Positions 1 through 44,784 of a DNA stretch of 44,784 nt are shown in pieces. Below the pieces are notes generated by a model that had not been told where the DNA came from, did not search any database, and saw only the letters and a list, made by a program, of their open reading frames with translations. This DNA is from Escherichia phage mutPK1A2, in the sequence record NC_047889.1; one strand, 5' to 3'. Positions within the stretch are counted from its first letter, which is position 1. Each line of letters opens with the position of its first letter. Made by a program: the position numbers and the translations under genes.

Positions 1-287
1 CTCGCCCTCGCCCTCGCCGGACTTTCCCCATATGGGGTCGCGCTGCGGTTGGCTTGGGAATTGGGCTAGGCTGGGCCGTCTTCAACCTGCTGCCGCAGGA
101 AGCTCGACGGGCTGGCTGAGGTTTGCCTTGTACTCGCTTAGTGGTACACAAGGAGAACGCCTAGGAAGCGCTAGGGCACGCCTTAGTATTGGACAAGGTG
201 ATTGCCTTAGTGCATCCGCTTAGGGCTTACACGGGCCGTTTTAGGGCCATTCCTGAGCGTTTGACAGGGTGTGTTGGTGTGGGCTAT
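1..287. repeat. Left direct terminal repeat (DTR), at least 287 bp
   Basis: Bases 1..287 are identical to 44498..44784 by direct reading; the right copy is cut by the window end so the true length may be longer. Begins with (CTCGCC)x3. Confidence 0.9.
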
Positions 288-329
288 CTGTTCGTTTCGT
301 CTCGCTGGCGCTCGCCTACACTCACCGCG

Positions 330-351
330 CTTGTGTATCCTTGGTATAATC
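330..351 (+). promoter_or_regulatory. Candidate host sigma70 promoter (extended -10 TGgTATAAT)
   Basis: Perfect TATAAT at 345..350 preceded by TG at 342..343; no good -35, so weak call. Confidence 0.3.
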
Positions 352-364
352 CTGATGGATAGCT

Positions 365-700
365 TAGGTTAACCTTAGTGGGTTGCCTTAGTTAAAGCCT
401 TAGTGCTTAGCTTAGTATCAACTTAGTAGTGTACCTTAGTTAGTCTTAGTGCCAGACCTTAGTGATTGCATAGCTAAAGCTATAAGATGCAATTAGGTCG
501 CGGTCGGTAGACCGCTAAGAGCAGGTAATAGTAATAAAGATGCAGTAGGAGGAACACCAGAAACCTAGCCAACCTAGTCTATCCTAGCTCTGTATCTATT
601 GCTCTTCCTTAGTCTCACATGCTAGACAACCTATGTTCACCTTAGTAGTTGTGACATGTATCACATAAATGATCTATCTTAGTGAAACTTAGTGTTGACA
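365..700 (+). repeat. Array of about 12 short CTTAGT / CCTTAGT repeats internal to the left DTR
   Basis: Recurring CCTTAGT, GCTTAGT, ACTTAGT, TCTTAGT units at irregular spacing between about 373 and 690; related CTTAGT units also inside the DTR (about 136, 183, 209). Confidence 0.7.
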
Positions 701-723
701 CAGAGGCAATCAACAGGTATACA
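695..723 (+). promoter_or_regulatory. Candidate host sigma70 early promoter (TTGACA-17 bp-TATACA)
   Basis: Consensus -35 TTGACA at 695..700, 17-bp spacer, TATACA at 718..723; lies upstream of the early genes as in T7 A-promoters. Confidence 0.45.
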
Positions 724-946
724 TTAGCAATCACTGAGGCGGACCTAGCAAGCTGCCTCAGGTTATAAGCAGGATAATTGATGCGTAGGTCATAGCTAGT
801 GAATGTAGTCGCATGAAGGCTTGAGTAAGGGGCCGTTTAATACCTTCTTCCTCTGGAGACAACGCTTATAGCACCGCTCTTTAACAATTTGCTTAGTGTA
901 ACCTATGTATGCCGTGGTTAATTACTTATTAAATGAGGTATTAACT

Positions 947-1078
947 ATGAGTTTAGCAACGCTGAGTTATGAAGAAATGTATGCAGCCTACTACAACGCA
1001 TTAGATGAAGGAGAAGAAGCATTGACCTTCGCTGAGTTTATGGAGGCTTTATGGAGTTTCTATCATGACTCTAAATAA
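947..1078 (+). CDS. Hypothetical early protein (43 aa, acidic)
   Basis: ATG with upstream TGAGGT; ORF below the 60-aa track cutoff, found by reading; overlaps the next ORF by 14 nt. Confidence 0.35.
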   Translation: MSLATLSYEEMYAAYYNALDEGEEALTFAEFMEALWSFYHDSK

Positions 1079-1247
1079 CCGTGAACTATCCGTTCTCTTC
1101 ACTCTGTTATGCTACATGATTCGTAACAACGAATTGCTTACAGATGATGAGTTGGCACTATATCACCGCTTTCTTAACGAAGGTTGGACAGATACAGTTA
1201 ACCATAAACGTGACTTGATGAAGGAGTTAAGCAATGTATCAGCATGA
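1065..1247 (+). CDS. Hypothetical early protein (60 aa)
   Basis: ORF track; GGAG 9 nt upstream; tight packing with neighbours. Confidence 0.4.
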   Translation: MTLNNRELSVLFTLLCYMIRNNELLTDDELALYHRFLNEGWTDTVNHKRDLMKELSNVSA

Positions 1248-1458
1248 GGTTTTCTTTGAATCAGCTAAAGAAGCTATTCGTTTGCATGATGATATGAAGT
1301 TAGCAGATATGAAGGTTGGCTTGACCAGCTTCCTGCTGGATTACAACATGGAATATCACCGCGTTACCTTGGTATCTGAGTATGACCATCAAACGATTAC
1401 CGAGTATCTAGGTAGCGAAGATTATGATTACGACCAAGTAATCACAACAGACCTGTAA
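1234..1458 (+). CDS. Hypothetical early protein (74 aa)
   Basis: ORF track; strong RBS AAGGAG before ATG. Confidence 0.5.
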   Translation: MYQHEVFFESAKEAIRLHDDMKLADMKVGLTSFLLDYNMEYHRVTLVSEYDHQTITEYLGSEDYDYDQVITTDL

Positions 1459-1584
1459 ATTAGCTATTGACAGCCACGGCATACAAGGTTACATTAAGCA
1501 TCAAGACGGCGACGTCTTTAAACATCCCGCTCTTTAACAATCTGGTTTGTGCCTTGATAGGCTTACTAACAAAGGTGAACTATC

Positions 1585-1749
1585 ATGACTAACGCACAAC
1601 GTAAACGCTATGATGCATTGCAAGAGAAACTTGCTGTTGCTTATGCCGCTTGGCAAGCTAACACAGACAAGAGCAAACACGATAAACTTTATAGTAAAGT
1701 GGTTGCAATTAATGCTAAAATAGATAAACTTGTGAATAGTATCTTATAA
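1585..1749 (+). CDS. Hypothetical early protein (54 aa, basic N-terminus)
   Basis: ATG preceded by AAAGGTGA; flanked by a 19-bp inverted repeat (1543..1561 / 1772..1790); not in the ORF track because under 60 aa. Confidence 0.4.
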   Translation: MTNAQRKRYDALQEKLAVAYAAWQANTDKSKHDKLYSKVVAINAKIDKLVNSIL

Positions 1750-1898
1750 GATAGTTGCTGGCACTAGCCAGCCTATCAAGGCACAAGCCACGCTCTTTAA
1801 CAATTTGGATAGAAGCTTCTTAGTCTGGATAGGTTAAACCTAGGGTATTCTTTTGAGTACCCTATAATGTAACCTAACTAACTAATGAGGATTAAATC

Positions 1899-2228
1899 AT
1901 GGAACGCAATGCTAACGCTTACTACAACCTTCTGGCTGCAACTGTTGAAGCATTCAACGAGCGTATTCAGTTTGATGAGATTCGCGAAGGTGATGATTAC
2001 TCTGATGCACTACATGAGGTTGTAGACAGCAATGTTCCAGTTTATTACAGCGAAATCTTTACTGTGATGGCTGCTGATGGCATTGATGTTGATTTTGAGG
2101 ATGCTGGTTTGATTCCTGACACGAAGGATGTAACCAAGATTCTACAAGCTCGCATCTATGAAGCTCTTTATAATGATGTACCAAATGACAGCGATGTAGT
2201 TTGGTATGAAGGCGAAGAAGAGGAATAA
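1899..2228 (+). CDS. ocr: Ocr-like DNA-mimic anti-restriction protein (T7 gene 0.3 homolog)
   Basis: Highly acidic 109-aa protein; segment [43 protein letters not shown] closely matches recalled T7 Ocr ([43 protein letters not shown]); acidic C-terminus; first sizeable early gene as in T7. Confidence 0.8.
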   Translation: [109 protein letters not shown]

Positions 2229-2336
2229 TAAGATGGAAAGGAAATATAACTTCATATTTTCAGACGGTGTGACCTTAAAATGTTCCTTGCGATTTGCACA
2301 GATTCGTGAGGAAGTACTAGGAACTACATACAAGCT

Positions 2337-2360
2337 ATTTAGCTGACACTATAAGAGAAG
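2337..2360 (+). promoter_or_regulatory. Variant phage-promoter-like element ATTTAGCTGACACTATAAGAGAAG
   Basis: Shares the GACACTATA core with the phage consensus but differs at -11 and around +1; may be a weak early promoter or a relic. Confidence 0.3.
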
Positions 2361-2422
2361 GCTTAACAAGGCGTTGCTACGGTAGCGCCTGATTAAACTT
2401 TCACTTACTAGGAGTTGAGATT

Positions 2423-2608
2423 ATGAAAACCTTGATTGGATGCTTCTTGTTGGCTTCTCTTGCTCTGGCATTTACCGCTAAAGCTGGTTATGACGCTTAT
2501 AAAGTAGAACAAGCCCAGCAAGACTGGGCCAAAAAGTTCAACTTGTGCAGCAAGAGCAACACCTACGAGTACTGCAACAAAACACTAAGACACTTATGGA
2601 AAGAGTAA
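2423..2608 (+). CDS. Small early protein with N-terminal signal peptide (61 aa, 3 Cys)
   Basis: RBS AGGAG; N-terminus MKTLIGCFLLASLALAFTAKA-G is a typical Sec signal peptide with an AKA cleavage motif. Confidence 0.5.
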   Translation: MKTLIGCFLLASLALAFTAKAGYDAYKVEQAQQDWAKKFNLCSKSNTYEYCNKTLRHLWKE

Positions 2609-2672
2609 CTAACCTATAGCCTGCCTGAGTGGGCTATGTGATATTTACTTACCACTATATAAGGTGATTACT

Positions 2673-3557
2673 ATGACTACTGAAAACACCCTCGTGTCTG
2701 TCCGTGAAGCTGCAACCGCTGAAATTAAGCAGCACTTAGACAATATCGGCACTTCTTACATCAAAGTTGGCGCTTGTCTGAATGAATTACGCGGTGATTT
2801 CGAAGGTCAAAAAGACTTTTTAGCTTATGTAGAATCAGAGTTCGGCATCAAGAAGGCACAATGCTACAAGCTGATGAGTGTAGCCCGTGTCTTTGAAGGA
2901 GACGAACGCTTTAAAGGTGTGGCTATGCGTGTAATGCTGGCGCTTGTTCCTTTCGCTGATGAAAATATAATCATGGAGAAGGCCGCAGAACTCGCCGCAG
3001 ATGGCAAGCTGGACACTAACGCCGTAAACGCCTTGATTGAGCCTAAGAAAGAGATAAAGGCCGAAACGGTACAATCTAAGGCTGAGACAGTAAAACCGCA
3101 GGAGAACGCGACTGAGGCCGCAGAATCACAGGAAATGCAAGCGCCGCAGGTAGTGCCACCCGCGAGCGAGCAGGAGGCCGACGAATCAGCACCATGGGGA
3201 GAGGAAAGCAAGCCGGAGGCACCGAAGGCCGCGCCGCTGGATAACACGGCTAATACTGAGAATGCCGCTATTGCTGGTCTGCTGGCACAAATTAAAGCAC
3301 TGACTGAGCAATTACAGGCAGCCAATGATCGCATCGCCTCCTTAAGTAGCGCACGCGAAAGCAAGAAGGCAGCCGCGCCTATGCTGCCGCAATTCAAATC
3401 TTCCTGCTTCTATGCTCGCTTAGGTTTAAGCGCTGAGGAGGCAACGAAGAAAACAGCAGTTAACAAGGCACGCCGCGAACTGGTTAAGCTAGGCTACGGT
3501 GAAGGCCATGAAGCATGGCCCTTAATCTCTGAGGCAGTAGAAGAGTTGACTAAGTAA
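2673..3557 (+). CDS. Hypothetical early protein (294 aa; globular N-domain, acidic Ala/Glu-rich linker, C-domain)
   Basis: Long ORF with SD AAGGTG before ATG 2673 (track start 2664 is GTG); sits immediately upstream of the RNAP gene, the slot held by gene 0.7 in T7, but with no kinase motifs seen. Confidence 0.6.
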   Translation: MTTENTLVSVREAATAEIKQHLDNIGTSYIKVGACLNELRGDFEGQKDFLAYVESEFGIKKAQCYKLMSVARVFEGDERFKGVAMRVMLALVPFADENIIMEKAAELAADGKLDTNAVNALIEPKKEIKAETVQSKAETVKPQENATEAAESQEMQAPQVVPPASEQEADESAPWGEESKPEAPKAAPLDNTANTENAAIAGLLAQIKALTEQLQAANDRIASLSSARESKKAAAPMLPQFKSSCFYARLGLSAEEATKKTAVNKARRELVKLGYGEGHEAWPLISEAVEELTK

Positions 3558-3620
3558 CCTTATCGGTGGCATCTTCTTAGGTGTCACCTATTAAGGTTTC
3601 TTTCACTAGGAGTAAACAAG

Positions 3621-6248
3621 ATGCAAGACCTACACGCTATTCAACTTCAACTTGAAGAAGAAATGTTTAACGGCGGTATCCGTCGCTTTGAAGCGGACCA
3701 ACAACGCCAGATTGCATCCGGTAATGAATCAGACACGGCATGGAATCGCCGCTTATTGTCCGAACTAATCGCACCTATGGCGGAAGGTATTCAGGCTTAC
3801 AAGGAAGAATACGAAGGCAAGAGAGGTCGTGCACCACGTGCATTAGCTTTCATTAACTGCGTAGAAAACGAAGTAGCAGCATATATCACCATGAAAATCG
3901 TTATGGACATGCTGAATACAGACGTTACCTTACAAGCCATCGCTATGAATGTAGCGGACCGCATCGAAGACCAAGTACGTTTTAGCAAGCTGGAAGGTCA
4001 CGCAGCTAAATACTTTGAGAAAGTGAAGAAGTCGCTTAAGGCTAGCAAGACTAAATCTTATCGTCATGCGCACAACGTAGCGGTAGTAGCTGAGAAATCT
4101 GTTGCTGACCGTGACGCGGATTTCTCCCGTTGGGAGGCATGGCCTAAAGACACCTTGCTGCAAATCGGTATGACCTTGCTCGAAATATTGGAGAATAGTG
4201 TATTCTTCAATGGTCAACCTGTCTTCCTTCGTACCTTGCGCACTAACGGCGGAAAGCATGGTGTTTACTATTTACAGACCAGTGAACATGTTGGCGAGTG
4301 GATAACTGCATTTAAGGAACATGTAGCGCAGCTCAGCCCTGCCTATGCACCTTGCGTTATACCTCCCCGCCCTTGGGTATCACCTTTTAACGGTGGGTTT
4401 CATACTGAGAAAGTAGCAAGCCGTATTCGTCTGGTAAAAGGCAATCGTGAGCACGTCCGCAAGCTGACCAAAAAGCAAATGCCAGCGGTTTACAAGGCTG
4501 TTAACGCTTTGCAGGCGACTAAGTGGCAGGTTAATAAAGAGGTTTTGCAGGTAGTAGAAGACGTTATCCGTCTCGACCTTGGTTATGGTGTGCCTTCCTT
4601 TAAACCGCTCATTGACCGCGAGAACAAGCCAGCTAATCCAGTGCCGCTAGAATTTCAGCACCTACGGGGCCGTGAACTGAAAGAAATGCTTACGCCGGAA
4701 CAATGGCAAGCCTTTATCAACTGGAAAGGTGAATGCACCAAGCTGTATACCGCTGAGACTAAGCGCGGCAGCAAATCGGCGGCGACCGTCCGCATGGTAG
4801 GACAGGCCCGTAAATACAGCCAGTTTGACGCAATATACTTCGTGTATGCACTGGACAGCCGCAGCCGCGTCTACGCGCAATCTAGCACGCTCTCTCCGCA
4901 ATCAAACGACTTAGGCAAGGCATTGCTCCGTTTTACCGAAGGGCAGCGCCTTGATAGCGCTGAGGTGCTTAAATGGTTTTTGGTGAACGGGGCTAATAAC
5001 TGGGGTTGGGATAAGAAAACTTTTGACGTGCGCACCGCTAACGTGCTGGATAGTGAATTTCAAGACATGTGCCGCGACATTGCAGCGGATCCGCTGACCT
5101 TCACTCAATGGGTTAATGCCGACTCCCCTTACGACTTCCTTGCTTGGTGCTTTGAATATGCGCGTTATCTGGATGCACTGGATGAAGGCACGCAAGACCA
5201 ATTCATGACGCACCTCCCAGTCCATCAAGATGGTAGTTGTTCTGGTATCCAGCACTACAGTGCTATGCTACGCGATGCAGTAGGTGCGAAAGCGGTAAAC
5301 CTTAAGCCCTCTGACTCCCCTCAAGATATTTATGGTGCCGTTGCGCAGGTAGTAATTCAGAAGAATTATGCATACATGAATGCAGAGGATGCGGAAACCT
5401 TCACTTCTGGCAGCGTGACTTTAACAGGTGCAGAACTTCGTAGCATGGCTAGTGCGTGGGATATGATAGGAATCACTCGCGGCCTGACCAAAAAGCCCGT
5501 AATGACACTACCTTACGGCAGCACACGTCTAACCTGCCGTGAGTCAGTGATTGATTATATCGTTGATTTAGAAGAAAAAGAGGCCCAACGGGCTATTGCG
5601 GAAGGGCGTACCGCCAACCCTGTACATCCTTTTGATAATGACCGTAAGGACAGCCTGACACCTAGCGCAGCTTATAACTATATGACAGCTCTAATCTGGC
5701 CTTCTATCTCGGAAGTGGTTAAAGCTCCTATAGTGGCAATGAAAATGATTCGTCAGCTTGCACGTTTCGCAGCTAAAAGAAACGAAGGCTTAGAATATCC
5801 CTTACCAACTGGCTTCATCTTGCAACAAAAGATAATGGCTACCGATATGCTCCGCGTATCCACTTGCTTGATGGGTGAAATCAAGATGAGTCTCCAGATT
5901 GAAACAGATGTAGTTGATGAAACGGCAATGATGGGTGCGGCTGCTCCTAACTTCGTCCATGGTCACGATGCTAGCCACCTGATTCTGACTGTATGTGACC
6001 TAGTGGATAAAGGTATTACATCCATTGCAGTCATCCATGATTCTTTCGGTACTCATGCAGGACGTACCGCAGACCTGCGGGATAGCTTAAGGGAAGAAAT
6101 GGTTAAGATGTATCAAAACCATAATGCCCTGCAAAACCTGCTAGATGTGCACGAAGAGCGTTGGTTAGTAGACACCGGAATCCAAGTACCAGAGCAAGGG
6201 GAGTTTGACCTTAACGAAATCTTAGTTTCAGACTATTGCTTCGCATAA
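3621..6248 (+). CDS. Single-subunit DNA-dependent RNA polymerase, SP6-type
   Basis: 875 aa; N-terminus [32 protein letters not shown] recognised as SP6 RNAP; catalytic motifs [13 protein letters not shown] and HDSFGTH present; RBS AGGAG. Confidence 0.95.
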
Positions 6249-6706: not shown

Positions 6707-8695
6707 ATGACTATTATTCAGAATGTACCGTGTCCTGCCTGTCAAAAGAATGGACATGATATTACTGGCAACCATCTTATGATATTTGAGGATGGCGCTG
6801 GTTACTGTAACCGTGGTCACTTCCATGATAACGGTAAGCCTTATTACCATAAGCCAGAGGGTGGCATCGAGATAACCGAATTGCCTATTACTGGCAATAT
6901 TAAATATACACCTTCTCAGTTTAAAGAGATGGAGAAGGAAGGGAAGATTAGCGACCCTAAGCTACGCGCCATCGCACTTGGTGGTATGCGTATGAAAGAC
7001 CGTTGGGGGGTTATGAATGAGCAAGAAAGGGCAGACCAAGAAGCAGAGTGGAAACTTGATGTTGAATGGTTCCTCACGCTTAAGCGTAAGAACCTTGTAT
7101 CCCGTCACATTCGAGGTGACATCGCAGCAATGTACGATGTGCGCGTTGGACACGATGAAGAGGGAAGAGTCAACCGTCACTATTATCCACGATATGAAAA
7201 GGGTGTGCTTGTTGGAGCAAAATGCCGGACGTTGCCGAAGGATTTTAAGTTCGGACACCTAGGTAAACTCTTTGGTATGCAAGATCTTTTCGGGATGAAT
7301 ACTTTGTCTCACGTGTTAGACAAGGGAAGACGAAAGGATTGCTTGCTTATTGTGGGCGGCGAACTGGATGCACTAGCAGCACAGCAAATGCTCCTTGATT
7401 CTGCCAAGGGTACTAAGTGGGAAGGCCAGCCTTATCATGTATGGTCTGTCAACAAAGGCGAGTCTTGCCTTGAAGAGATAGTGCAGAACCGTGAGCATAT
7501 CGCCCAATTCAAGAAGATTATATGGGGTTTTGATGGAGATGAGGTAGGGCAGAAGCAGAATCAGCAAGCGGCTCGCCTGTTTCCTGGCAAATCCTATATC
7601 CTTGAATACCCATCTGGTTGCAAAGATGCTAACAAGGCATTGATGGCTGGCAAGGCTAAAGAGTTTGTTGATGCTTGGTTTAATGCCAAGTCATCTGATG
7701 AAGTCTTTGGTAGCCAGATTAAATCTATCGCATCTCAAAGGGATAAGCTCAAGGCTGCACGTCCAGAGCAAGGGCTATCATGGCCTTGGCCTAAGCTGAA
7801 CAAGGTAACGCTAGGTATTCGTAAGAACCAGCTTATCATTGTAGGTGCAGGCTCTGGTGTAGGTAAGACTGAGTTCCTCCGCGAAGTGGTTAAACATCTT
7901 ATTGAAGAACACGGTGAATCTGTAGGCATCATTTCTACAGAAGACCCGATGGTCAAGGTGTCCCGTGCTTTTATCGGTAAGTGGATTGATAAGCGCATTG
8001 AGTTACCGCCAACCAATGACCCGAAAGAAGACGGATACCGTGAGGTGTTCGACTACACCGAGGAAGAAGCTAACGCTGCCATTGATTATGTGGCTGATAC
8101 AGGAAAGCTATTTGTGGCTGACCTAGAAGGCGACTATTCTATGGAGAAGGTAGAGCAAACTTGCCTAGAGTTTGAGGCTATGGGCATTTCTAATATCATC
8201 ATTGATAACTTAACGGGGATTAAATTAGATGAGCGTGCTTTTGGTGGGAAGGTTGGTGCACTTGATGAATGCGTCAAACGAATTGGTACTATCAAAGACC
8301 GACATGCGGTTACGATTTTCCTTGTCTCTCACCTTACACGTCCTCCGGCAAACCGTACCCAACACGAAGAAGGTGGCGAAGTTATCCTTTCTGACTTCCG
8401 AGGCTCAGGCGCTATCGGATTCTGGGCATCTTACGCCTTGGGGATTGAGCGTAATACAAGAGCTGAAACGCTTGATGAAAGGACTACCACGTACATCTCG
8501 TGTGTCAAAGACCGCGACCAAGGAATCTACACTGGAACCAAGGTCATGCTTAAGGGTGACATTCAAACCGGACGTTTAATGGAACCACAAGCCCGTACTA
8601 AGTCATTTGATACAGGTGAAGCAAGGCAACAAGAAGTACCTGATTTACCTGACACTATAGAAGGGACTAACTTCGATGAAGAAAGTGAGTTCTGA
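6707..8695 (+). CDS. DNA primase/helicase (T7 gp4-like)
   Basis: 662 aa; N-terminal Cys zinc-binding region (CPACQ...CNRGH), Walker A GAGSGVGKT, acidic C-terminus ending EESEF. Confidence 0.9.
   Translation: MTIIQNVPCPACQKNGHDITGNHLMIFEDGAGYCNRGHFHDNGKPYYHKPEGGIEITELPITGNIKYTPSQFKEMEKEGKISDPKLRAIALGGMRMKDRWGVMNEQERADQEAEWKLDVEWFLTLKRKNLVSRHIRGDIAAMYDVRVGHDEEGRVNRHYYPRYEKGVLVGAKCRTLPKDFKFGHLGKLFGMQDLFGMNTLSHVLDKGRRKDCLLIVGGELDALAAQQMLLDSAKGTKWEGQPYHVWSVNKGESCLEEIVQNREHIAQFKKIIWGFDGDEVGQKQNQQAARLFPGKSYILEYPSGCKDANKALMAGKAKEFVDAWFNAKSSDEVFGSQIKSIASQRDKLKAARPEQGLSWPWPKLNKVTLGIRKNQLIIVGAGSGVGKTEFLREVVKHLIEEHGESVGIISTEDPMVKVSRAFIGKWIDKRIELPPTNDPKEDGYREVFDYTEEEANAAIDYVADTGKLFVADLEGDYSMEKVEQTCLEFEAMGISNIIIDNLTGIKLDERAFGGKVGALDECVKRIGTIKDRHAVTIFLVSHLTRPPANRTQHEEGGEVILSDFRGSGAIGFWASYALGIERNTRAETLDERTTTYISCVKDRDQGIYTGTKVMLKGDIQTGRLMEPQARTKSFDTGEARQQEVPDLPDTIEGTNFDEESEF
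8643..8665 (+). promoter_or_regulatory. Phage promoter ATTTACCTGACACTATAGAAGGG inside the 3' end of the primase/helicase gene
   Basis: Good consensus match; T7-like phages often embed promoters in the ends of genes. Confidence 0.6.
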
Positions 8696-44497: not shown

Positions 44498-44784
44498 TCT
44501 CGCCCTCGCCCTCGCCGGACTTTCCCCATATGGGGTCGCGCTGCGGTTGGCTTGGGAATTGGGCTAGGCTGGGCCGTCTTCAACCTGCTGCCGCAGGAAG
44601 CTCGACGGGCTGGCTGAGGTTTGCCTTGTACTCGCTTAGTGGTACACAAGGAGAACGCCTAGGAAGCGCTAGGGCACGCCTTAGTATTGGACAAGGTGAT
44701 TGCCTTAGTGCATCCGCTTAGGGCTTACACGGGCCGTTTTAGGGCCATTCCTGAGCGTTTGACAGGGTGTGTTGGTGTGGGCTA
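44498..44784. repeat. Right direct terminal repeat (DTR)
   Basis: Same sequence as 1..287; T7-like genomes carry terminal redundancy used in concatemer formation and packaging. Confidence 0.9.

Follow-up and report, generated by a model that had tools for sequence, protein, structure and literature searches.

The early left end of Escherichia phage mutPK1A2 (NC_047889.1) appears to be built of modules resembling those of an rRNA operon, in which a boxA sequence is followed immediately by a strong helix, and which would act through a Nus-dependent mechanism. We put the probability of this reading, mechanism included, at about 60%. Here, we identify a repeated motif as boxA, describe the helices beside it and the selection acting on them, and document a geometry copied from rRNA operons and the mobility of the gene cassettes so enclosed. 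The window analyzed is the whole 44,784-nt sequence, which carries a 286-bp exact direct terminal repeat (1-286 and 44499-44784) and is thus a complete, full-length linear phage genome. It is a phage of the SP6/K1E group (Autographiviridae, Molineuxvirinae, Vectrevirus), with 92.5% identity to coliphage K1E over the left 3.6 kb. All three boxA copies are on the plus strand, 5′ of ocr, of the gene for the single-subunit RNA polymerase (RNAP), and of an SP6-type promoter-like site at 2337. Because the stretch that bears them precedes the RNAP gene as well as the first SP6-type promoter-like site, it should be read by host RNA polymerase alone. Promoter-like sites are predicted from sequence 5′ of the boxA copies, and the record of phage K30 annotates a host promoter 46 nt 5′ of boxA.

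Three copies of an rrn-type boxA

An earlier note on this genome had reported a motif occurring three times, each time between small early genes. The three occurrences are real, but the first begins at 875, 11 nt to the right of the position near 864 given there, and is located in the 5′ leader before the first open reading frame (ORF) rather than between ORFs. The copies are as follows.

875-892, plus strand: boxA copy 1, core GCTCTTTAACAA at 876-887, in the 5′ leader of the early transcript; matches rrnB, fits the consensus, and is unpaired in the predicted fold
1528-1545, plus strand: boxA copy 2, core at 1529-1540; the same 18-mer as in T7
1791-1808, plus strand: boxA copy 3, core at 1792-1803; found by motif search

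The 18-mer CGCTCTTTAACAATYTGG matches at all three places, with one mismatch in copy 1, which ends in TGC. By chance, 0.05 matches would be expected, and three copies were reached in none of 100 shuffles. Our reference rRNA operon was E. coli K-12 rrnB, whose leader boxA, TGCTCTTTAACAATTTATC, has 15 contiguous bases in common with the phage motif (GCTCTTTAACAA plus TTT). The boxA region of the rrnB 16S-23S spacer, GCTCTTTAAAAATCTGGAT, differs by one base from copy 2, GCTCTTTAACAATCTGG, and the sequence downstream of copy 3, AATTTGGATAGAAGC, resembles the spacer sequence AATCTGGATCAAGC. All three copies fit GYTCTTTAANA, the consensus of functional gamma-proteobacterial boxA (PMC5725501), and neither strand of the 44.8 kb holds a further match. 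In the minimum free energy (MFE) and centroid structures of a 1041-nt global fold, all three are predicted to be unpaired. Because of the identity with rrnB and the fit of every copy to the consensus, the repeated motif is, by sequence, an rrn-type boxA, the type of RNA site recognized by the NusB-S10 heterodimer.

Helices beside the boxA copies

The features that accompany the three copies are listed below.

890-919, plus strand: stem A, 5′ strand, with one bulged base at 905; 98.9% of alignment cells paired in 15 relatives
947-1078, 1065-1247, and 1234-1458, plus strand: module 1 cargo, three small overlapping ORFs of PHROG families 2061, 9275, and 6403, all families of unknown function
1467-1495, plus strand: sigma-70 promoter-like site TTGACA-17-TACATT (10 of 12 matches), which shares bases with the 3′ strand of stem A and may be an internal early promoter
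1472-1500, plus strand: stem A, 3′ strand, from duplex energy, the global fold, and the alignment of relatives
1503-1518, plus strand: small hairpin AAGACG-GCGA-CGTCTT, 10 nt 5′ of boxA 2, the position of boxB in rrn; a small hairpin forms there in the MFE and centroid structures
1543-1563, plus strand: stem B, 5′ strand, from duplex energy, the global fold, and covariation
1585-1749, plus strand: module 2 cargo, a 54-aa ORF equivalent to K1E gp2.8 (phrog_16783, E = 6e-41)
1757-1772, plus strand: small hairpin GCTGGC-ACTA-GCCAGC next to the 3′ strand of stem B, the first 3 nt of which it overlaps; present in the centroid structure
1770-1790, plus strand: stem B, 3′ strand, ending directly at boxA 3; from duplex energy and covariation
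1808-1898, plus strand: local hairpin with internal loops, similar to T7 R0.3 (-33.6 kcal/mol, z = -3.95), its 3′ side reaching the ocr ribosome-binding site

Stem A, a long-range repeat stronger than the one described earlier and absent from the earlier note, starts 1-3 nt after boxA 1 and encloses the three small ORFs between 947 and 1458. Its duplex has 29 pairs and one bulged base, with an energy of -56.3 kcal/mol compared with -22.3 ± 3.7 kcal/mol for shuffled 3′ arms. Stem B had been seen before as a 19-bp inverted repeat, complementary at 18 of 19 positions, around the 54-aa ORF; the repeat is genuine and does bracket that ORF, but it extends to 21 contiguous pairs, and the supposed mismatch is a U·G wobble. 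Its duplex energy is -53.3 kcal/mol (shuffled 3′ arms, -22.1 ± 4.0 kcal/mol). The hairpin noted after the 54-aa ORF was found at 1757-1772. Folding of the early transcript had been proposed as a check; in an unbiased global fold of 860-1900, stems A and B both appeared in the MFE as well as the centroid structure, the motif copies were unpaired, and copy 3 was followed by a predicted local hairpin. Transcripts started at the promoter-like site at 1467-1495 and read-through RNA cut by RNase III would have similar 5′ ends, just 5′ of the next boxA.

For comparison, we used 22 relatives, comprising K1E, K1-5, SP6, and IMG/VR contigs with 76-100% RNAP identity; sequences are labeled L, with L001 denoting K1E, L002 SP6, L026 Citrobacter phage CrRp3, L149 T5 (NC_005859), and L150 Pectobacterium phage My1 (NC_018837). 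In the alignment of stem B, 94% of cells are paired, and 99% in a 16-bp core, compared with 23-44% in slid controls. Both sides have changed in seven pairs, for example from G-C to A-U and from A-U to G-C (L013, L015, and L020), and the covariation score was matched in none of 500 shuffles. These compensatory changes argue convincingly that stem B is under selection as an RNA helix. The adjoining hairpin at 1757-1772 likewise exists in compensating versions (GCCAGC/GCTGGC, GCTTGC/GCAAGC, and GGTCGGC/GCTGGCC). Across the 15 relatives aligned for stem A, 98.9% of cells are paired, with one U-A/A-U switch in six sequences and one invariant G·U pair, and in SP6 and L018 an indel turns the bulge into a pair. 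The recurrent or invariant G·U pairs in the stems would be A·C mismatches on the opposite strand, which points to the plus-strand RNA as the selected molecule; the count of 98 G·U against 16 A·C leans the same way but is biased, since the folding algorithm scores G·U as a pair.

The third module is of another build. The hairpin at 1808-1898 is constructed like the annotated R0.3, R0.5, and R1 sites of T3, and five of its pairs still pair after two-sided changes (GGGUA/UACCC to GGAGA/UCUCC). We took a T7-type local RNase III site to consist of an upper stem of about 9-10 bp, an asymmetric internal loop, and a lower stem. Judged against the annotated T3 sites, this build is present at 1808-1898, 2340-2425, 2605-2650, and 3555-3600. 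Stems A and B are not of this kind, being long-range; they have the properties of a leader-trailer helix, namely more than 17-20 bp formed at long range, closing around a cargo, next to a boxA. A search for a long-range partner downstream of boxA 3 gave nothing convincing, the best candidate having -34.5 kcal/mol, and a search of positions 1-4000 against Rfam at permissive thresholds gave no match at the boxA/stem modules.

The earlier note had likened this layout to the RNA processing sites between T7 early genes. For copy 3 the likeness is real, in that an R0.3-like hairpin follows it, but the motif itself is a single-stranded boxA rather than a processing site, and stems A and B are of the leader-trailer type rather than T7-type local hairpins. 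A plain version of that idea would have T7-style intercistronic RNase III processing at work, with the motif a conserved part of the sites and the Nus factors uninvolved. The motif does always adjoin helices resembling RNase III substrates, and in T3 and T7 it is about 30 nt from R0.3. However, it is predicted to be single-stranded and outside the helices, it is identical to rrn boxA over 15-17 nt, and it stays invariant although the adjacent helices change sequence completely. Moreover, the annotated R0.5 and R1 sites of T3 are without the motif, boxA being found once in the first 3.3 kb of T3, and RNase III is not known to require a single-stranded sequence motif. We therefore regard processing by RNase III without Nus factors as improbable.

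Comparison with rRNA operons and other boxA systems

The arrangement of the phage modules follows that of an rRNA operon closely. The 16S leader-trailer duplex of rrnB (-57.9 kcal/mol) starts 0-3 nt after the leader boxA, and the 5′ strand of the 23S duplex (-44.9 kcal/mol) opens with UCUGGAU directly after the spacer boxA. In both systems the boxA core is identical, a helix of -45 to -58 kcal/mol begins 0-3 nt after it and encloses a cargo, a second boxA follows, and some boxAs are preceded by a hairpin. The differences concern the cargo, which is 0.2-0.6 kb of translated small ORFs in the phage and 1.5-2.9 kb of rRNA in rrn, and the distance from the helix to the next boxA (0-29 nt compared with about 270 nt). 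Unlike their counterparts in rrn, the phage modules are swappable and number 2-4. In rrn, boxA is necessary and sufficient to nucleate the rrn anti-termination complex (rrnTAC), which is Rho resistant and elongates at about twice the speed, and the substrate of RNase III is a leader-trailer helix of more than 17 bp (PMC10250234). According to a 2026 preprint, a stably assembled rrnTAC holds the 5′ strand at the polymerase, brings the 5′ and 3′ strands together, and greatly increases co-transcriptional cleavage by RNase III (bioRxiv 10.64898/2026.03.17.712431).

Phages T7, T3, and phiA1122 have one boxA each, an identical 18-mer (CGCTCTTTAACAATCTGG) between the host promoters and R0.3, an RNase III site that the T3 record annotates and that is about 30 nt 3′ of boxA. 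Their arrangement is that of module 3, with boxA, a local hairpin with internal loops, and then gene 0.3, or ocr in mutPK1A2. These phages have local hairpins only, whereas two of the three boxAs of mutPK1A2 are accompanied by gene-enclosing long-range helices. The nut sites of phage lambda are comparable in that a boxA on nascent phage RNA recruits host Nus factors, as it may do in mutPK1A2, but the core in mutPK1A2 is the full rrn consensus. The lambda boxA is a shorter variant of it. We considered a lambda-type nut site and rejected it: in mutPK1A2 boxA is followed by a strand of a long-range helix or by the R0.3-like hairpin, and no boxB-type N-binding hairpin was found after it, an N homologue not having been looked for. 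The small early ORFs have no match in Pfam and belong to PHROG families of unknown function. Outside rRNA operons, a consensus boxA is present as a Nus-factor target in the 5′ untranslated region of suhB (PMC5725501) and in CRISPR arrays (PMC7665894). Both are single copies without an adjacent leader-trailer helix, and the suhB copy acts negatively.

Conservation and exchange of modules

All 22 relatives keep the motif, in 2-4 copies 5′ of the polymerase gene, with differing flanks; apart from deviant copies in K1E and SP6, the core is invariant or changed only at positions where the consensus tolerates it. Their non-terminal boxAs are followed by a long-range helix of 21-30 bp, whose 5′ strand starts 1-3 nt after boxA and whose 3′ strand ends 0-29 nt before the next boxA, the exceptions being module 1 of L020 and module 1 of L025 (about -20 kcal/mol). 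Equally strong helices of unrelated sequence occupy the same position relative to boxA in L024 (module 1), L025 (module 2), My1, and T5.

The unit from one boxA to the next also comes and goes as a whole. CrRp3 corresponds to mutPK1A2 minus exactly one 263-bp boxA-to-boxA unit, and the unit missing is the one bracketed by stem B; we read this junction by eye and by motif comparison, since MAFFT misplaced the gap because boxA is repeated. B-type modules are absent from several relatives and present twice in K1E, and in different phages at least eight ORFs unrelated to one another are found inside homologous B-type frames, at one fixed position. Among the 21 phage records that have the 54-aa ORF are those of the T7-like K30 (Studiervirinae) and of Klebsiella phages about 40-42 kb long, whose versions are 93-96% identical to it. 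In K30, nucleotide homology of about 95% starts exactly at the upstream boxA and stops just after the downstream boxA, the flanks being unrelated. From these sequence comparisons, gain, loss, and exchange of the boxA-to-boxA unit as a block across phage subfamilies appear strongly supported, and homologous exchange at the shared boxA and inside the conserved arms is probably the simplest mechanism by which cassettes move. Because boxA is invariant and common to the early regions of T7-, SP6-, and T5-like phages, it could serve as the homology joint for such events.

A small cassette bounded by inverted repeats was the other arrangement suggested by the earlier note. The cassette holds up, the unit being present or absent as a block and crossing phage subfamilies, but the repeats behave as a selected RNA helix and not as transposon ends. 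An element acting at the DNA level, either a miniature inverted-repeat transposable element (MITE) or similar transposon with boxA as its target-site duplication, or a unit for which boxA is a mere recombination linker without RNA function, would account for inverted repeats flanked by direct repeats, for the single-boxA "empty site" in CrRp3, and for the filled site in the unrelated backbone of K30. It would not account for the compensatory changes and the G·U wobbles confined to the plus strand, which indicate selection on an RNA helix. The arms are confined to the module positions and absent from the rest of the genome; at least eight unrelated cargos share one frame at a fixed position; no transposase is present, and no mobilizing enzyme is evident. 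Furthermore, the 12-18 bp "duplication" is the exact host boxA, a far better fit to function and homologous exchange, and T7 and T3 retain a single boxA without a cassette. A DNA-level origin thus seems very unlikely to us. Promoter-stem-loop (PeSL) cassettes mediate modular shuffling in T4-type phages and resemble the modules described here in that small early genes stand between short, conserved regulatory repeats, which apparently act as recombination joints; they differ in consisting of a promoter and a terminator-like stem-loop instead of a Nus-factor site and a gene-enclosing helix.

Modules in T5-like phages

A wider scan of viral contigs for the boxA motif extended the arrangement to a second family. 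My1, a T5-like member of the Demerecviridae, has four boxAs on the minus strand of its left terminal repeat (9461, 7051, 6747, and 6268), with strong long-range helices after two of the four. T5 has one boxA, GCTCTTTAAAAA, at 4988 on the minus strand in the first-step-transfer DNA; it is followed immediately by a helix of about 26 bp (-49 kcal/mol) enclosing T5.008 and preceded by a hairpin, GGCGG-gaagttta-CCGCC, plus "ac", as the rrnB boxA is likewise preceded by a hairpin plus "ac". Both phages thus resemble mutPK1A2 in having a 25-26 bp long-range helix around a small ORF directly after boxA, and differ in belonging to another family and in carrying the modules on the other strand, in the terminal repeat. 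The My1 stem and the B arm of SP6-like phages have CTGATAGGCTTACT in common, and the cargo of a My1 module is homologous to an ORF of the SP6-like contig L025 (38% identity, E = 1e-11). The 3′ strands contain promoter-like sites, TTGACA-17-TAAGAT in T5 (about 4722-4690, minus strand) and TTGACA-17-TATGAT in My1 (downstream of the boxA at 6747), the former being the promoter P_D/E20. The boxA/helix modules are not annotated in the T5 or My1 records.

Many of the scanned boxAs are followed by another context (TCTGGATATCC...); L127, the one checked, partly matches temperate lambdoid phages and other Salmonella and Klebsiella phages. Further viral contigs have two or three boxAs on the same strand and, in part, strong long-range partners. 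In L125, an IMGVR_UViG contig with no close relative in the phage collection except for tRNA matches, boxAs are on the plus strand at 4207, 4531, and 5540, and that at 4531 has a partner of -46.9 kcal/mol at about 790 nt; L043 has same-strand boxAs at 2973 and 3208.

A proposed mechanism and its alternatives

Each module comprises an rrn-type boxA, predicted to be single-stranded, and, 0-3 nt on, the 5′ strand of a strong helix, which in modules 1 and 2 is a long-range helix around one to three small early genes and in module 3 the local R0.3-like hairpin before ocr. We propose that, by analogy with rRNA operons, boxA in the nascent RNA would bind NusB/S10, and together with NusA, NusG, and SuhB this would convert E. 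coli RNA polymerase to a Rho-resistant and faster form, able to get as far as the gene for the phage polymerase, 3.6 kb further on. The complex would tether the boxA-proximal 5′ strand at the RNA exit, so that a leader-trailer-type helix could close once the 3′ strand emerges. RNase III would then cut the helix, and each cassette would come free as a separate mRNA whose ends are base paired. Because cleavage would sever the tether, a fresh boxA would be needed after each helix, as with the spacer boxA in rrn. Nus-factor binding, anti-termination, cleavage by RNase III, and reloading are the steps that we infer from this analogy.

Several points weigh against this reading. Stem A is nearly invariant, with 23 of 30 pairs showing no variation, and would by itself be weak evidence of selection on RNA. 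Part of its conservation may reflect a DNA-level constraint from the promoter-like site that overlaps it. Of the 15 relatives, 14 have TTGACA as the -35 hexamer of that site (1467), although it is not part of the core helix, and SP6 has TTGACT. Two terminal boxA copies among the relatives depart from the consensus: the third copy of SP6 (1536-1547, GATCTTTAACAA) has A at the Y position, and the fourth of K1E (about 2237-2249, GCTCTTTTAACAA) has one extra T; these deviant versions (GAUCUUUAACAA in SP6 and GCUCUUUUAACAA in K1E) could be weakened or decaying sites. No boxC is clearly recognizable in the phage modules, and the boxB-like hairpins are weak. The long-range stems are lineage specific and not a general companion of boxA, a stem of -40 kcal/mol or stronger being present in 9 of 106 boxA contexts compared with 2 of 212 controls. 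Since the cargo is translated, ribosomes would already shield it from Rho and might melt the long-range helices. Finally, a boxA near a start codon can act in the opposite direction, as at suhB, where translation is repressed and Rho termination promoted (PMC5725501; PMC12360218).

This last point can be developed into an alternative, in which boxA and Nus factors would loop the RNA, occlude the ribosome-binding site of a cassette, and promote Rho termination, limiting the expression of possibly toxic early genes. The end of boxA 2 is 44 nt before the ATG at 1585, inside the 50-nt window for suhB-like targets (PMC5725501), and a 2025 review mentions a context-dependent stimulation of Rho termination by boxA (PMC12360218). 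The other two copies do not fit this window, boxA 1 and boxA 3 being 59 and 95 nt from the nearest supported starts, at 947 and 1899. In addition, the geometry is the leader-trailer layout of rrn and not that of suhB, and premature termination would also block the essential phage RNAP gene downstream in the same early region. Negative control of the whole region is therefore unlikely in our view, and a suhB-like role for individual cassettes is possible. One could also imagine that the early RNA, once released by RNase III, is a sponge that titrates NusB/S10/SuhB from host rrn and so aids host shut-off. Each transcript does have multiple boxA copies, and it has been argued in a recent preprint that a cell would be harmed if processed boxA RNA were stably sequestered (bioRxiv 10.64898/2026.03.17.712431). 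However, host rrn transcripts are extremely abundant, 2-4 phage copies per transcript would be weak competitors, and the fixed adjacency of boxA and helix would be left unexplained. A sponge is quantitatively implausible and, of the alternatives weighed here, the one to which we give the least credence.

If the Nus-dependent modules are as we propose, a more general and decidedly tentative picture can be drawn, which we think has a smaller chance of being right. Lytic phages of the T7-, SP6-, and T5-like groups, whose DNA enters stepwise and is read first by host polymerase, might make their first transcription unit look like an rRNA operon. With the whole rrn anti-termination complex assembled on boxA, they would outrun Rho and speed transcription, possibly along with genome entry; its RNA-looping chaperone activity would fold gene-enclosing helices for RNase III; and the invariant boxA would be the universal joint for an integrase-free exchange, between families, of small early cassettes that probably serve host takeover or anti-defense.

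Novelty and implications

The boxA/helix system of rrn is known; what appears to be new is the combination of multiple boxA copies with gene-enclosing helices, and their use as a frame for exchangeable cassettes across phage families. A 2025 review of Rho termination lists roles of boxA for lambda, rrn, suhB, and hisG only (PMC12360218). The GenBank records of K1E, SP6 (two records), K1-5, T7, phiA1122, T3, and K30 contain no boxA feature, even where promoters or RNase III sites are annotated. Our literature search found no paper linking boxA with T7-like phages, Autographiviridae, SP6, K1-5, T3, T5, or the term pre-early, and a mention of the T7 or SP6 copies in closed-access work is possible. 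The T7 boxA may have been noted in reviews of the T7 group.

Anti-termination of the rrn type is seen as dedicated to rRNA, with few cellular exceptions (suhB and CRISPR arrays), and the lambda type needs a phage protein. If our reading is right, strictly lytic phages of at least two families would exploit the host rrnTAC without any phage factor, and would put its processivity, as well as its chaperoning of RNA for RNase III, to work on protein-coding cassettes. The modules, with loops of 0.26-0.65 kb, would then be a compact natural system in which to study how rrnTAC couples transcription to the formation of long-range helices, and they would explain the neighbor-independent expression of very small accessory early genes. 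The boxA-to-boxA unit would also supply a simple sequence rule by which early genes that are rapidly exchanged, and among which anti-defense functions are common, could be catalogued, and would make a link between Nus factors and transcription-driven genome entry testable. In phage engineering, boxA and its stem could be used as portable insulating parts.

Other features of the early region

Downstream of the modules, three landmarks delimit the region considered above.

1899-2228, plus strand: ocr, encoding a DNA-mimic anti-restriction protein (Pfam PF08684, E = 9e-31; phrog_2568), the first gene 3′ of the last boxA
2337: first SP6-type promoter-like site, ATTTAGCTGACACTATAAGAG
3621-6248: single-subunit RNA polymerase gene, from the ORF list

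Two of the intergenic hairpins at 2340-2425, 2605-2650, and 3555-3600 overlap weak SP6-type promoter-like sequences (2337, ATTTAGCTGACACTATAAGAG; 2643, ATTTACTTACCACTATATAAG). Matches of the hairpin at 2346-2417 to miRNA models in Rfam were rejected as spurious. A ribosome-binding context is directly repeated at 2392-2428 and 3590-3626 (ATTAA..TTTCACT.ACTAGGAGT....ATG), just 3′ of local hairpins, and precedes the ORFs at 2423 and 3621, the latter being the RNAP gene.

The heptamer CCTTAGT occurs nine times on the plus strand of the untranslated leader (181, 205, 373, 386, 398, 434, 457, 607, and 640) and five times in the remaining 42 kb. This array could represent genome-end or packaging repeats or an array of protein-binding sites. 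The shorter CTTAGT is also present at the start of the stem A 5′ arm (892) and in the region after boxA 3 (1819).

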